Source: Desulfobacterales bacterium (GTDB lineage Bacteria > Desulfobacterota > Desulfobacteria > Desulfobacterales > UBA2245). From it: DNA of 64,000 nt. Made by a program: the position numbers and the translations under genes. Of this stretch, positions 21,498-26,943 are shown one piece after another. The stretch's first letter is position 1; the number at the start of each line of letters is the position of its first letter. The notes under the pieces are model-generated. The model was not told the origin of the DNA. It did no database searches and worked only from the letters and a program-made list of their open reading frames with translations. Location of the stretch: the NCBI GenBank assembly GCA_040771865.1, contig JAXGZF010000003.1, positions 372,001 to 436,000 on the forward strand, given 5' to 3'.

Positions 21498-21767
21498 AGC
21501 CCGTTCTTTAATCGCGAAGCCGCCACCATTGCGCTGGGTTCGGTTTTTTCCTTGACCGCCTCCATTCGCGGGGTTTATAAGAAAATTTCTTATCCTTCAG
21601 GCGTATTCGCCTCGTACTTTTCGCTGCGGTTTTATGTTTCATTGTTTTAAGGCATAGATGCAAGATCAGATCGGGAAACGTTAAAATACTTGCAACCCGT
21701 GACGAATTAAATTGATAAAAATGAAAAGCGTTTTCCAAATATCGAAATTGGGTTGGGCGAAATGCTT

Positions 21768-21797
21768 AAAGAGCCAAGAGCAGACCTGACCCGTTTT
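21768..21797 (-). repeat. REP-like palindrome, RAYT-end copy
   Basis: aaagagccaagagcagacctgacccgtttt is the near reverse complement of the REP copies at 23389 and 25808; on + it encodes LKSQEQT*, matching the LKSQ seen at the end of the RAYT domain. Confidence 0.75.
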
Positions 21798-21837: not shown

Positions 21838-22596
21838 ATGGATAATTTCGAACGCTATAAAATGCTTGATTATGGAGTACCTGAAGACATTTCATGCGTT
21901 CCGACCGAGTTCGTCCTTCATAAAGATGGTGCACTAAAAGTATTGTGGGCACCCTGCGATCACATCAATACCGGTGCCAAAATTGCTATTGTCGGGATCA
22001 CTCCAGGTTGGCAACAGACAAAAATCGCTTACACAGAAGCCCAAAAAGCTCTAAAAGAAGGACTTAGCTATCCGGAAGCATGCAAACGTGCGAAAGGTCA
22101 AGCCGCATTCGCTGGAACTATGCGAAAGAACCTCATTGCAACGCTTGATGATATCGGCGTCGCTCAAGCATTAGGTATTGCCTCGACTGTTGAAATTTTT
22201 GGCAGGTCACACCCCTTACTCCATTCGACGTCGGCATTGCGTTACCCGGTTTTTCGTAACAATAAAAATTATACCGGCCACATACCAGATCCTTTGAAGA
22301 ATGATTACCTGCGTTCAATGACAGAGACTATACTCACGGAGGAGCTAAGGGCGGTATCACCAGCTTTGGTGGTTCCACTTGGAAAGGCCGCGAATGCATG
22401 CGTCAAACACGCGTTATCAATTTGTCATGCAGAAGTTTCTCTTTTAGATATGTTTCCACATCCCTCAGGGGCAAACGCGCACCGCATGCGCCAGTTTAAA
22501 GAACAAAAGAAAACTCTCAAGAAAATTGTTGAAGATTGGCAACATCTGCCTAATAAGGCTAATTCAGCCGGCGCACAAAACCGCGCGGCTGATTAA
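21838..22596 (+). CDS. Uracil-DNA glycosylase-like superfamily protein (integron cassette gene)
   Basis: IAIVGITPG, VVPLGK and FPHPSG motifs of the UDG fold; visibly lower GC than the flanks; stop codon lies inside the attC. Confidence 0.72.
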   Translation: MDNFERYKMLDYGVPEDISCVPTEFVLHKDGALKVLWAPCDHINTGAKIAIVGITPGWQQTKIAYTEAQKALKEGLSYPEACKRAKGQAAFAGTMRKNLIATLDDIGVAQALGIASTVEIFGRSHPLLHSTSALRYPVFRNNKNYTGHIPDPLKNDYLRSMTETILTEELRAVSPALVVPLGKAANACVKHALSICHAEVSLLDMFPHPSGANAHRMRQFKEQKKTLKKIVEDWQHLPNKANSAGAQNRAAD

Positions 22597-22607
22597 CGAC
22601 GTTGGGC
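22548..22607 (+). mobile_element. attC site (60 bp)
   Basis: GCCTAAT-aaggc-taattcagccg...cggctgatta-acgac-GTTGGGC, with an extra base in the left arm as expected for attC. Confidence 0.8.
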
Positions 22608-22641
22608 GCTCAATAAAAGTCGCGTGATTTTGGGGAATGGC

Positions 22642-23361
22642 ATGTCATCGAAGACGGTTAGTCAAAAGGCAGTTCAAACAGCGTCACCTCGCCAGTGGAT
22701 CGGTATAGTTGTGGTGTATCTCTTCATCCCACTGGCTTTATTGGTATGCGGAGGGGATTTCGGTTGGTGGCAGGCGTGGATCTATTCCCTGCTGATCGTT
22801 GCCGCAGGCATAGGGGGGCGCATTTGGGCGGAACGGCGGCATCCGGGGTTGTTGGCCGAACGACAAAATATTGAGAAGATGCAAAGCGCGAAAGCTTGGG
22901 ACAAAGTGCTTGCTCCGCTGATGGCGCTGAGTGTAGGATTCCCACTGGTCATTGTGGCAGGGCTGGATCACCGCTGTGGCTGGTCCCCCATATTTCCGCT
23001 ATGGCTCATCGTGCTTGGCTTCATCTTGATCTCGCTCGGATACGCTTTCGCTGTGTGGGCATTGGCAGAGAACCGCTTTTTCTCGGGCGTGGTGCGTATT
23101 CAGACGGATCGAGGGCATGTGGTGTGTGACAGTGGCCCATACCGGATTGTGCGGCATCCGGGCTATGCCGGAAATATTCTGCCACTGCTGGGTATAGTGC
23201 TGGCCTTAGGCTCGGTGTGGACACTTGTTCCGGCGGCGGTGGCGTTGATCATCGCGGTGATCAGAACCGCACTGGAAGACCGGACTCTACAGGAAGAGTT
23301 GCCGGGCTATCGAGACTATGCGCGGCGTGTGCGCTATCGGTTGATTCCGGGGATATACTGA
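22642..23361 (+). CDS. Isoprenylcysteine carboxylmethyltransferase (ICMT/PEMT) family membrane protein; probable cassette gene
   Basis: ENRFFS.VVRIQ, GPYRIVRHPGY, EDRTL, GYRDY; begins just after the attC core GTTGGGC. Confidence 0.88.
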   Translation: MSSKTVSQKAVQTASPRQWIGIVVVYLFIPLALLVCGGDFGWWQAWIYSLLIVAAGIGGRIWAERRHPGLLAERQNIEKMQSAKAWDKVLAPLMALSVGFPLVIVAGLDHRCGWSPIFPLWLIVLGFILISLGYAFAVWALAENRFFSGVVRIQTDRGHVVCDSGPYRIVRHPGYAGNILPLLGIVLALGSVWTLVPAAVALIIAVIRTALEDRTLQEELPGYRDYARRVRYRLIPGIY

Positions 23362-23388
23362 GGGGCCTCGCCCCTTTGAAAAAGGGGA

Positions 23389-23417
23389 AAAGGGGTCAAG
23401 TCTGCTCTTGACCTTTT
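23389..23417 (+). repeat. REP-like palindrome upstream of RAYT
   Basis: aaaggggtcaag-tctgct-cttgaccttttt hairpin 28 bp before the RAYT ATG. Confidence 0.8.
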
Positions 23418-23445
23418 TGGCCGGCAATGATAGGCAATTGCCATT

Positions 23446-25809
23446 ATGTCGCGTCCCCTTCGAATAGAATATCCCGATGCCTGGTATCATGTGATGAACC
23501 GCGGCCGGCGCACTGAGGAGATTTTTGCGGATAAAGAAGATTACGCCATGTTTACGGAGCTGTTGAAAGAAACCTCCGAGATGTGGAACGTTCGAATCGC
23601 CGCCTACTGCCTGATGCCGAATCATTACCACCTCCTGGTTCAAACCCCTGAAGCCAACATTTCCAGAAGCATGCGCTACTTAAACGGCATATACACTCAG
23701 CGATACAACCGCCGGCATGGCTGCGACGGCCAGCTTTTCCGTGGACGCTTTAAATCCATACTCATCGACGGCGACATCTATCTGCTTCAGGCGGTTCGAT
23801 ATATCCACCGAAACCCGTTGCGAGCCGGGCTGGTAGAGCGCATCGACCAGCATCCATGGAGCAGCCACAAAGGGTATATCTCCATTTCGAAGAAATGGGA
23901 TTGGCTTCATAAGAATTACATCCTGTCCTTGTTGTCGAAAAATCGAAAGGACTGGTTGCGGCATTACAAACAGTGGGTGGCCCTTGCGGATGAAGATGAG
24001 GTCGGCAGGAAAATTGAGGGGAAAAAATGGCCTTCGCTTTTAGGGCCGGAAGCGTTCATCGACCGGATCAAGGAACGCTATGGGTTGAAACAGATTAATG
24101 AAGAAGTTCCTTCAGCCAAGGACCTGCTTCCGGAGGTGGATCAGATCCTTAAAACTGTGGCCGGGTTTTATGACGTTGAGCCTTCCGAGCTTTTAAAAAA
24201 ACGGCGAGGAAGTCCTTTTGAGGCCCGAAGCGCTGCCATATTCCTGACCCGGAAACTGAGGCGCGACGCCTTGAAGGAGATTGGCGAGGCGTTTCAAATC
24301 GAAAAATACAGCACCGTGAGCAGCGCAATTGAACGCATGAAAAAACGAGTTTCCGAAGATCAAGCGTTGCGTCGCCGATTAGATGAAATGGGAAACTCGA
24401 TCTTAAAGAGTCAAGGAAAAGGGGGCGAGTTCGCTCTTAACCCCCTAAATTGGCGATCTCGTAAAACAGCAACGGCAGAAAGGCGCGCCCGGCCCATGAA
24501 TGCTCATGATTATTATGCAAGCGTTGGCAGCAGGCTGAAACAATGTTTCCTTTTCAGTGATTACGTGGTCGCCACCGGCAGCGAACTGACCGCATCCGGA
24601 GCAGACCCGGCCTTTCCGGCCACAGCCGAACCCATTGAGCGCCTTGAGGAACTGACGGTCGAACGTAGCCTTCAGGTCCATCTTCCCATCATTGGAAAGC
24701 GGTCTCAAAGCGTGTTGATGCCGATAGATCTTGAACTGTTTCTCAAGGACGAGAACCACCTGCTGTATACCAGCCCGGAAAGCCAGAAAGCGCTCTTTTC
24801 ACAGCTGATTCCGGTTTTCCGTTTCCTCGAGAATTTTCTCCGTTCCCGGGGCCTTCCCTACCTGCTGGATTATACCCCCTCGGGATGCCATATTCTGTTT
24901 CATAATCTCCTGGGACAGCGCGCAACCGACCATCTGGTTGAAATCGGCTACCTGGAAGAGGACCTGATCCGGGCCTGCGACTTCCGCGACCCGAACGATA
25001 TCCGCCGCCGTAACGGCGTTTCACACCCGGCGGCCCGAGCGTTCAGCGGACTGGGAAAACTGGCCGAATACATTTCCCTGGTTACCATGGAGGCATTCAA
25101 GGACAACGAATCCCGGGGAATGTTTCCCGTCTTTATCTCGGATGCCCTGGATCGCAGCATCAACTTCGACAACTCATGGAACGAGGGCTCCCCGTTCATG
25201 CGCTCGATTCGAAGCCCCTTCAGCCTTCATAAAAAGAACCTGGAAAAATACGGCATCGTGGGCCGCGGCCCCCTGGTGGATGTGATCGGCGCCTGCTTTG
25301 ACGGCTCACAGGCAATTGAAGAAACTGATATGGACCGGATTCTGAACGCCATGTGGAATCTGGAAAACGCCTCGAAACATGCACAAAAATTTTCCGGCCG
25401 CATTCCCTGTTCCAATGACACCCTGATTGACCTGATTCAAGAATACAAAGCCTCCGATCTGTACCGGTTTCATGAGGAATTTGACGGACAGGAAGATATG
25501 CCTGCAGGCGAAGCCCTAGAGCACGCCAGGCGGGAGACAAGGGTTCCGGACTGGGCTGTAGATATCCTCTATCATCCCAACCCGAGAGCGCTGCAGCCGA
25601 AAAACATGATCGGTCTGATTTATGATTTCTTAATCCGTGCCGACTGGAAACCCAAGCATATCGCCAACATCCTGCGCGATCTGTATCAGAACCCCTCGTT
25701 TCAGTGGACTCAGGATTTTTTCAAGTATCCGGCCGTAGAAAAAGCCAACTTCTGGGTCAGGACCTACAGCGCGGTGACGCTATTGAAGCAGGGCCGCCTG
25801 AGCCTGTAA
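23446..25809 (+). CDS. RAYT (REP-associated Y1 HUH transposase with DnaA-C-like HTH; about aa 1-325) in frame with an AEP primase/polymerase-like protein (from Met at 24496)
   Basis: RAYT: YHVMNRG, NHYHLL (HUH), RYIHRNP (catalytic Tyr), WSS, C-terminal ARSAAIFL..LKEIG..F...YSTV. Distal part: MPIDLE, YTPSGCH, INFDNS, RSIRSPFSLH AEP-type motifs. Confidence 0.8.
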   Translation: MSRPLRIEYPDAWYHVMNRGRRTEEIFADKEDYAMFTELLKETSEMWNVRIAAYCLMPNHYHLLVQTPEANISRSMRYLNGIYTQRYNRRHGCDGQLFRGRFKSILIDGDIYLLQAVRYIHRNPLRAGLVERIDQHPWSSHKGYISISKKWDWLHKNYILSLLSKNRKDWLRHYKQWVALADEDEVGRKIEGKKWPSLLGPEAFIDRIKERYGLKQINEEVPSAKDLLPEVDQILKTVAGFYDVEPSELLKKRRGSPFEARSAAIFLTRKLRRDALKEIGEAFQIEKYSTVSSAIERMKKRVSEDQALRRRLDEMGNSILKSQGKGGEFALNPLNWRSRKTATAERRARPMNAHDYYASVGSRLKQCFLFSDYVVATGSELTASGADPAFPATAEPIERLEELTVERSLQVHLPIIGKRSQSVLMPIDLELFLKDENHLLYTSPESQKALFSQLIPVFRFLENFLRSRGLPYLLDYTPSGCHILFHNLLGQRATDHLVEIGYLEEDLIRACDFRDPNDIRRRNGVSHPAARAFSGLGKLAEYISLVTMEAFKDNESRGMFPVFISDALDRSINFDNSWNEGSPFMRSIRSPFSLHKKNLEKYGIVGRGPLVDVIGACFDGSQAIEETDMDRILNAMWNLENASKHAQKFSGRIPCSNDTLIDLIQEYKASDLYRFHEEFDGQEDMPAGEALEHARRETRVPDWAVDILYHPNPRALQPKNMIGLIYDFLIRADWKPKHIANILRDLYQNPSFQWTQDFFKYPAVEKANFWVRTYSAVTLLKQGRLSL
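24416..24446 (+). repeat. Degenerate REP copy at the RAYT/AEP junction
   Basis: gaaaagggggcgagttcgctcttaaccccct aligns with gaaaaggggtcaagtctgctcttgacctttt; contains no in-frame stop. Confidence 0.65.
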
Positions 25810-25836
25810 AGGGGTCAAGTCTGCTCTTGGCCTTTT
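25808..25836 (+). repeat. REP-like palindrome overlapping the AEP stop codon
   Basis: aaaggggtcaagtctgctcttggcctttt. Confidence 0.8.
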
Positions 25837-25864: not shown

Positions 25865-26172
25865 ATGTCTCGTTCCCTTCGAATAGAACATCCAGATGCG
25901 TGGCGCCATGTGATGAACCGCGGCCGGCGCGCCGAGGAGATTTTCGCGGATCAAGAAGATTACGCCATGTTTACGGAGCTGTTGAAAGAAACCTTCGAAA
26001 TGTGGAATGTTCGAATTGCCGTCACCTGCTTGATGCCCGATCATCGCCATCTTCCGGTTCAAACCTTCGAAGCCGATATTTCCGAAAGCGTGCGCCGCTC
26101 AAATGGCGTATATATCCAGCGATACAACCGAAGGCATGGCTGCGACGGACCAGTGTTCCGGGGTCGTTTTAA
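25865..26172 (+). pseudogene. Truncated, degenerate second RAYT copy
   Basis: Near-copy of 23446-23753 (MSRSLRIEHPDAWRHVMNRG...); HUH changed to DHRH; homology ends at RGRF before the catalytic Tyr. Confidence 0.85.
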
Positions 26173-26220
26173 TTTCTTGCCTTACTCAATTCCCGGCGGG
26201 ACCCCTCGGAGAATGAAGCG

Positions 26221-26943
26221 ATGACCTATTCATTTGAACCCATTGGCGTGATCCGTTCCTGCTTTCAGCAGAAGTTCGGCATTCCGCGTCAGCCGGGGCT
26301 GGTTCCGGAAGCCAAGGCCGTGCTGGAACTTTTTCCGCCTTACAACCGCATGGAATCCCTCAGGGGGCTGGAAGGCTTTTCCCACCTGTGGGTGATATTC
26401 GTTTTTCATGAATGCAAATCCGATTCTTCAAGAACCACGGTGCGCCCGCCGCGTCTGGGCGGAAACAGGCGTGTCGGGGTCTTTGCGACCCGTTCGGGAT
26501 TCAGGCCCAATCCCATCGGCATGTCCGCCGTCGAAATGGAAAAGATCGAAGGCGACGACAAGGGCATCAGAATTCACCTCAACGGCGTGGATCTGCTGGA
26601 CGGCACGCCGGTGCTCGACATCAAGCCCTATCTGCCCTATGCGGACCGGATCTTCGAAGCAACGGGCGGATTTGCCGACAGGGCGCCTGACAAGAAATTC
26701 GCCGTGAGCTTCACTCCTTGTGCTTTGGAGGCCTGCCGGCGCATCGAGGCCGACAAGGGCATTTGCCTGGAGCCCGTTGTTTTTGGCATGCTTTCCTATG
26801 ACCCGCGACCCGCTTATTATACTCAGGATTCTTCAAAAAGCGATTTTGCAGCCTGCGTCTGCGGATTTCAGGTCCGGTGGAAAATCTGCGGCGATCAGGC
26901 TGTGGTGCAATCCATTGAGGGTCCCGAGGTCAAGGCAAGTTAA
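26221..26943 (+). CDS. trmO: tRNA (N6-threonylcarbamoyladenosine37-N6)-methyltransferase TrmO
   Basis: KFGIPRQPGL, FSHLW, TVRPPRLGGN, GVFATRS.FRPNPIG, DGTPVLDIKPY. Confidence 0.93.
   Translation: MTYSFEPIGVIRSCFQQKFGIPRQPGLVPEAKAVLELFPPYNRMESLRGLEGFSHLWVIFVFHECKSDSSRTTVRPPRLGGNRRVGVFATRSGFRPNPIGMSAVEMEKIEGDDKGIRIHLNGVDLLDGTPVLDIKPYLPYADRIFEATGGFADRAPDKKFAVSFTPCALEACRRIEADKGICLEPVVFGMLSYDPRPAYYTQDSSKSDFAACVCGFQVRWKICGDQAVVQSIEGPEVKAS

Follow-up and report, generated by a model that had tools for sequence, protein, structure and literature searches.

The window analysed here, a 64,000-nt stretch of a Desulfobacterales genome (G000, contig C3, positions 372001-436000), contains a 787-codon open reading frame (ORF) in which a RAYT-type HUH transposase (codons 1-325) runs in frame into a 437-aa gene with a predicted archaeo-eukaryotic primase (AEP) fold (codons 351-787; hereafter X). 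Comparison with the genome of a sister species of the same genus (G001) and with homologues of both halves indicated that the composite is probably a read-through accident at the level of the genus, in which rearrangement of the transposase's right-hand repeat would have removed the stop codon and joined two genes. The parts of the composite are as follows.

23392..23413, plus strand: left flanking repeat (repetitive extragenic palindrome, REP, or terminal inverted repeat, TIR), GGGG followed by the hairpin GGTCAAG-TCTGCT-CTTGACC

23446..24420, plus strand: RAYT/TIRYT-type Y1 HUH transposase by sequence, codons 1-325, with Y1_Tnp and a Bac_DnaA_C-like helix-turn-helix (HTH)

24421..24495, plus strand: 25-codon read-through linker, consisting of a degenerate repeat and the 5' leader of X; native stop absent

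24496..25809, plus strand: X, predicted AEP-fold gene of 437 aa, with a catalytic domain (residues 1 to about 325) and a helical C-terminal domain

The ORF extended on the plus strand from the ATG at 23446 to the TAA at 25809 without an internal stop, as the initial annotation of this DNA had described. The same 787-codon frame was found in G001 (L004 3259..5622), whose DNA was 91.5% identical to that of G000 over window positions 23387-25808. Public DNA contigs from two different studies also spanned the junction, one (X3, record 18) with three substitutions over 23921-24656 and the other (X1, record 5) with none over 24393-24982; neither contained an indel. The genomes are metagenome-assembled and the junction sits within a repeat, a setting in which an absent stop might reflect an assembly or sequencing error; since G001 shares the frame and the contigs of both studies cross the junction without indels, this explanation is scarcely credible. 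The composite ORF is genuine in the DNA. At the junction (24405-24450), which the annotation had proposed to verify, an artefact is for practical purposes excluded, and the related strains, in which the annotation had suggested that a stop codon might be found, also lacked one.

The transposase half had been described as an intact RAYT over its first ~325 aa, and every feature named in that description was recovered. Pfam Y1_Tnp (PF01797) matched residues 11-122 (E 4.2e-14, 53.2 bits, cut-off 23) and Bac_DnaA_C (PF08299) matched residues 231-297 (E 2.2e-11, 44.1 bits, cut-off 31.5). NHYH (HUH) lay at residues 59-62 and Y119 within RYIHRNP (118-124), identical in G000 and G001; by analogy with the family motifs, we take NHYH and Y119 to be the catalytic residues. 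The NCBIfam model REP_Tyr_transpos gave 75.9 bits and did not reach its cut-off of 80, a near miss that is expected for a longer, HTH-bearing subclass. A homologue search with residues 1-330 as the query listed 120 proteins, all of 306-351 aa (326 aa in 63 and 322 aa in 19), nearly all of which carried both domains; their C-termini read ..KSQExT* in 60 of the 120 and ..KS in 25. By sequence, the transposase half is of the TnpA_REP subclass 2.1.2/TIRYT type. Within the order, the nearest intact homologue found was that of G042, which was 69% identical and ended in ...ILKSQERT*. Ahead of that gene stands a hairpin repeat (GGGG, then GTCAAG, a loop and CTTGAC); the repeat recurs on the right as an exact reverse complement, and this right-hand copy contains the TGA.

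At the window transposase, this inverted-repeat layout is preserved on the left and broken on the right. The left repeat is intact, 32 nt ahead of the transposase ATG, and homology between G000 and G001 begins at 23387, i.e. at this repeat. On the right, the window matches the native sequence through AAGAGTCAAG (LKSQ, codons 322-325) and then diverges at once from G042; directly after AAGAGTCAAG, a degenerate repeat copy in forward orientation (24421-24442) occupies the place of the second half of the inverted repeat. This copy has five mismatches to the 22-nt core and is nearly perfect in G001, and the annotated passage of the frame beyond LKSQ into a degenerate REP without a stop was thereby upheld. 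Because the native stop lies inside the right repeat, rearrangement of that repeat entailed loss of the stop. A "related copy" at 21768 had been cited for the native ending: the ending EQT* does stand there, but as a relic of eight codons, and tblastn found no transposase copy at 21768.

Substitution patterns between G000 and G001 differed among the three segments. The transposase (325 codons, ~103 substitutions) had a synonymous divergence (dS) of 0.41 and a ratio of nonsynonymous to synonymous divergence (dN/dS) of 0.12, X had a dS of 0.175 and a dN/dS of 0.21, and the linker (25 codons, 12 differences) had a dS of 0.17 and a dN/dS of 1.06. By this measure the linker peptide is near neutral and under no constraint. 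The genes flanking the block had dS values of 0.19-0.43; since the dS of the block equals this genome background, the block looks vertically inherited and the junction appears to have been present before G000 and G001 split. A random 25-codon junction would be expected to be open and in frame with a frequency of ~0.11. We surveyed the 150 listed transposase matches from 151 genomes of the order for similar cases. Open frames longer than 410 aa occurred only in G000 and G001 (791 each), G097 (524) and G034 (825, a broken fragment with an internal stop), and a frame combining Y1 and AEP regions was confined to G000 and G001.

The G097 transposase (L097, G097:C100; 35% identity) has a frame that runs ~190 codons past the usual end into Pro/Gly/Arg-rich low-complexity sequence and, judging from that extension, is a second, independent stop-loss read-through. 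Homology to G001 runs from the left repeat to the X stop, which raised the idea that 23387-25808 is a mobile unit. We rejected this reading: the block has diverged as much as the genome background, no repeat follows X in G001, and a gene located 1.5 kb to the right in G000 is found on that side in G001 too, on the same contig and ~10 kb away.

The properties of X outside this genus were those of a stand-alone gene. Its ATG at 24496 is preceded by GAAAGG at 24478-24483, 12 nt upstream, as had been annotated, and its start Met was common to all 15 aligned homologues, one of which carries 15 additional residues ahead of it. In a set of 5.8 billion proteins, 197 homologues were found, between 240 and 765 aa long; among the 120 listed, 64 were exactly 437 aa and 103 were 434-445 aa long. 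A search limited to lengths of 766-2185 aa returned no relatives, a negative of little evidential weight. HMMER, run exhaustively against 1.84 billion representatives, gave 214 matches; among the 150 listed, 84 were 400-520 aa and only four were at least 560 aa, none of these four carrying a Y1 domain. Two of the four, the distant relatives P0195 (724 aa) and P0263 (747 aa), consist of an AEP region like that of X and, C-terminal to it, an AP_endonuc_2 TIM barrel (xylose-isomerase-like), which hints that the family may act in repair.

We then compared 79 X loci, found via the 15 closest sequences; the relatives in them share at least 38% identity, most of them 55-70%. A Y1 transposase stood directly upstream of X in one locus, L006 of the sister lineage, whose contig coordinates and ORF are identical to those of G001, so that it is no independent case; one other locus had an unrelated Y1 match ~4.8 kb away on the opposite strand. 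In most other loci a stop lay within ~30 codons upstream of X, the longest other open stretches being 206, 106, 100 and 99 codons. A Pfam scan of 104 immediate X neighbours detected no Y1_Tnp, other mobile-element gene, Ku or ligase. The scan gave scattered matches to RtcA (3), the DksA/TraR zinc finger (4), DinB_2 (3) and HD/GAF (4), together with several glycogen enzymes. Clustering of 692 ORFs from 80 loci revealed no conserved neighbourhood, the top family, generic ABC ATPases, being present in 12 loci. The search for other RAYT-AEP fusions or conserved adjacency, which the annotation had called for, therefore yielded none beyond the sister lineage among these 79 loci, and no relative of at least 766 aa was found.

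In G017, which belongs to another family of the order, X occurs without the transposase; its DNA aligns with that of the window from ~40 nt ahead of the ATG, a stretch that takes in GAAAGG. Judged from these sequences, X is a separate gene with its own conserved ATG and a Shine-Dalgarno-like GAAAGG. Family members share 55-74% identity across records of Desulfobacterota, Elusimicrobiota and Victivallales, and their distribution is patchy, without a fixed gene partner. The X DNA of G017 was 88.5% identical to that of the window (24496-25809; L005/L007) with a dS of 0.377, which is no higher than between same-genus genomes for ordinary genes, and X was found in 3 of 41 genomes of the order. The low dS to another family and this sparse occurrence make horizontal transfer of X among these lineages likely. 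In the surroundings of X, G017 has a fragment of a group II intron reverse transcriptase/maturase (RVT_1 and GIIM, 264 aa; L005 11525-12319) ~2.7 kb away. The gene after X in G001 (L004 6003-11423) encodes 1,806 aa with DEAD/Helicase_C and UvrD-helicase regions; G000 has no such gene at this position. The stop codon of X is TAA in the window and TAG in G001.

Sequence profiles did not place X in any described family. It matched no Pfam or NCBIfam family at E<=1, curated AEP families such as PF01896 or PF21686 included, no Pfam family was matched at E<=0.01 by any of the 67 aligned members, and a PDB sequence search with the family profile gave chance-level rows only, with nothing below E 0.025; PADLOC returned one row that was not meaningful (E 0.021), and PHROGs gave no match. 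A title-level literature search found no name for the family, and supplementary family lists may hold one. We therefore turned to a structural model, which AlphaFold2 built from the 67-sequence alignment with a mean predicted local distance difference test (pLDDT) score of 96.9 and a predicted template modelling (pTM) score of 0.94. Against 48,161 PDB representatives, the 22 best VIA-align rows were all AEP enzymes (Z 5.4-17.2), the first non-AEP row having Z 4.2. Prim-PolC of M. smegmatis was the best match (6sa0; Z 17.2 over 252 residues, root-mean-square deviation 3.6), followed by LigD polymerase domains (2fao, Z 15.5; 5dmu, Z 15.3; 2iru, Z 15.0), archaeal and eukaryotic PriS (Z 10.5-12.2), CAPP Prim-Pol (Z 11.5) and RepB' (3h25, Z 8.3; 3h20, Z 8.2). 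Foldseek placed the same AEP families on top, weakly (best E 1.2e-3), and the nearest named ESM-Atlas clusters carried DNA_primase_S or LigD_Prim-Pol.

Across the 67 sequences, D78, G130, D225 and K247 of X were invariant and H132, R236 and R239 were conserved in at least 90%; E80 was invariant in the 15 close homologues. In the model, the conserved residues lie on strands in the order of AEP motifs I-III and the basic nucleotide-binding residues, and we infer that they correspond to the motif I acidic residues, the motif II His, the motif III acidic residue and basic residues. The model thus supports X as an AEP-superfamily enzyme at the level of the fold, in line with the AEP-like character that the annotation had given to the distal 437 aa. 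Its closest folds and the AP_endonuc_2 fusions of two distant relatives make it most likely that X is a repair-type primase-polymerase like Prim-PolC or the LigD polymerase domain (PolDom), acting independently of the transposase.

Contigs from RNA libraries (X11 and X12, from the same study as X1) matched the inside of the transposase at 23515-23792 and the inside of X at 25113-25426 with 98-100% identity. None lay over the junction; such contigs are uninformative on strand, ends and absence, and DNA carry-over is possible. A scan for promoters and terminators detected neither a sigma-70-like promoter ahead of 24496 nor a terminator in the junction, its counts being at the level of shuffled controls. 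These data bear on the idea that the transposase is silent or dying and that X alone is expressed, the long ORF being a curiosity of annotation. X retains its own start and GAAAGG, a truncated second transposase copy adjoins at 25865..26224, and the repeat family is small (four copies at no more than two mismatches in 2.98 Mb), all of which would suit this reading. Against this stand the dN/dS of 0.12 over 325 codons with ~103 substitutions, the HUH motif and Tyr intact in both species, and the RNA-library match at 23515-23792, subject to the carry-over just mentioned. We regard a silent transposase as improbable.

The sequence of events that we favour would have begun in the common ancestor of G000 and G001, where the right-hand repeat of the transposase was presumably rearranged and a forward-oriented repeat copy took the place of the last 3-4 codons and the stop. 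The frame would then by chance (~1 in 10) have been open and in register over 25 codons into X. With no stop in the way, ribosomes starting at 23446 must make the 787-aa protein, which would have been tolerated, and free X would also be translated, from 24496. Since the transposase half is still under purifying selection, we infer that the chimera is probably produced and allows the transposase to work. The annotation had offered, as its alternative, accidental loss of the stop with independent translation of X from ATG 24496, and the data fit that account.

Several observations weigh against an accident. Both species have kept the frame open over a divergence of dS 0.17-0.41, and the 92 nt of the junction region are free of indels; the transposase is under purifying selection though it can be translated solely as the chimera; and the linker dN/dS is based on 12 differences only. 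The native promoter region of X has been displaced, as the homology to G017 starts only ~40 nt upstream, and this displacement, together with the missing sigma-70-like promoter before 24496, suggests that X is probably co-transcribed with the transposase. A natural, functional fusion of an HUH nickase with an AEP primase and an internal start also exists in RSF1010 MobA/RepB, with RepB' (PMC6854812).

A different explanation would be that the 787-aa chimera is a selected, bifunctional nick-and-prime protein, whose HUH domain would bind or nick repeat hairpins and whose attached AEP would prime or extend DNA at them, on the model of RSF1010 MobA/RepB, and that free X is made from the internal start. 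It would accord with a frame open in two species, purifying selection on both halves, an HUH motif and Tyr intact in both species, likely co-transcription, RepB' among the structural matches (Z 8.2-8.3), and relaxase-primase fusions with an internal start as precedents (PMC6854812 and PMC5862659). Set against them are its restriction to a single lineage (1 of 79 loci) and the failure to find an X relative of at least 766 aa, a linker with dN/dS of ~1 whose frame would be open by chance at ~0.11, a junction composed of a rearranged repeat and the untranslated leader of X, and the 104 scanned X neighbours without a Y1 transposase or other mobile-element gene. On balance we consider a selected bifunctional protein unlikely. 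It is correspondingly doubtful that the chimera is an enzyme of recent natural origin that nicks and primes at repeat hairpins, and so a chromosomal analogue of MobA/RepB built on a transposase, even with the transposase known in the genus solely as the chimera. The coupling of HUH nicking to AEP synthesis for REP copying, which had been put forward as the mechanism, was not supported, given the stand-alone X homologues of ~437 aa, the 1 of 79 loci and the unconstrained linker; nicking-synthesis coupling is at present unsupported. Stop loss by repeat rearrangement remains our preferred reading.

Further repeat copies and transposase remnants lie on either side of the ORF.

21763..21793, minus strand: relic of the native transposase 3' end, with the plus-strand reading MLKSQEQT* (8 codons), joined to an inverted repeat

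25811..25832, plus strand: third forward repeat copy with one mismatch, abutting the X stop

25865..26224, plus strand: truncated second transposase copy, a 119-codon ORF with Y1_Tnp at E 2.9e-7

The inverted repeat copy overlapping the relic has its core at 21772-21793, with four mismatches, and the repeat copy at 25811 has no counterpart at the same place in G001. The copies in G000 at no more than two mismatches to the 22-nt core were two in the window, C5:238238 and C7:407272; at up to five mismatches there were 11 in G000, several of them probably due to chance. The second transposase copy was 69% identical to residues 1-125 of the first and stops at the start of a trmO-like tRNA methyltransferase gene (26221..26943), with a 4-nt overlap. 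An apparent joint in the contig comparison that "goes back 2419" is not a circle junction; it arose because the compared stretch ended at 25900, inside this second copy.

To the left of the ORF, 21838-23361 holds a gene of the uracil-DNA glycosylase (UDG) superfamily and an ICMT/PEMT-like methyltransferase gene, without a match in G001; the pair is bracketed by the inverted repeat copy (21772-21793) and the forward copy (23392-23413). Synteny with G001 contig C21 ends at ~21663. Upstream of this region in G000, a segment of ~117 nt (21537-21653) carries a promoter-like TTGACC-17-TATAAG; G001 has the segment twice, once on C21 in the syntenic position and once on C31, where it follows X by ~185 nt (L004 5807-5922), 86% identical.

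In a transposase subclass whose stop lies inside the terminal repeat, any rearrangement of that repeat can lengthen the protein, and a gene caller or reader then meets a striking "fusion" that needs no functional explanation. X itself represents a well-conserved AEP-fold family, as modelled, outside every Pfam and NCBIfam model. If the chimera were active, the locus would offer a natural system for studying a primase-polymerase to which an HUH nickase is tethered.

Among known systems, no RAYT-primase or HUH transposase-primase fusion was apparent from the titles and abstract openings of the papers that the searches listed, and a Y1-AEP fusion was not conserved among homologues of either half (79 X loci; 150 listed transposase matches). 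A functional tie between an AEP-type polymerase and a transposase is reported in PMC9943667 for the IS-excision enhancer (IEE) of E. coli O157. IEE is a separate protein acting with IS629, and the 79 loci and 104 neighbours gave no conserved link between X and a Y1 transposase. X resembles Prim-PolC and LigD PolDom in its modelled fold, with conserved acidic, His and basic residues whose order would match that of the AEP motifs, and differs from them in lacking detectable sequence similarity and in its extra helical C-terminal domain of ~110 residues. Linkage of the type seen with LigD in non-homologous end joining was not observed, as neither Ku nor an ATP-dependent ligase occurred among the 104 neighbours or beside X in G000, G001 and G017.

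The transposase half has close parallels. TIRYT/TIRtron RAYT-like genes are described in PMC3733652 as having flanking inverted repeats with GGGGWSAS; the flanking repeat of the window starts GGGGTCAA, agreeing at 7 of 8 positions with this TIRtron motif as given there. TnpA_REP subclass 2.1.2 has, according to PMC6006769, a Bac_DnaA_C-like or HTH C-terminus, and the window transposase, with Y1 followed by Bac_DnaA_C in ~325 aa, is like it and TIRYT on that description. The intact homologue in G042 has the TIRtron layout, its right repeat overlapping the 3' end of the gene, whereas in the window the right repeat is rearranged, the stop is gone and the frame continues for another 462 codons.

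For the composite as a whole, the comparison is with MobA/RepB of plasmid RSF1010, in which the full-length protein has relaxase and primase activities and RepB' arises from an alternative start (PMC6854812); other RepB'-family members also have an N-terminal relaxase domain (PMC5862659). The window ORF departs from this system in that its nickase is a Y1 transposase (PF01797) and not a Mob relaxase, X has higher structural similarity to Prim-PolC, LigD and PriS (Z 12-17) than it has to RepB', it lies on a chromosome and not on a plasmid, and the fusion is limited to one genus with an unconstrained linker. With MobA(RepB) of RSF1010/R1162 it shares an N-terminal HUH nickase and a C-terminal region of predicted AEP fold with its own start.

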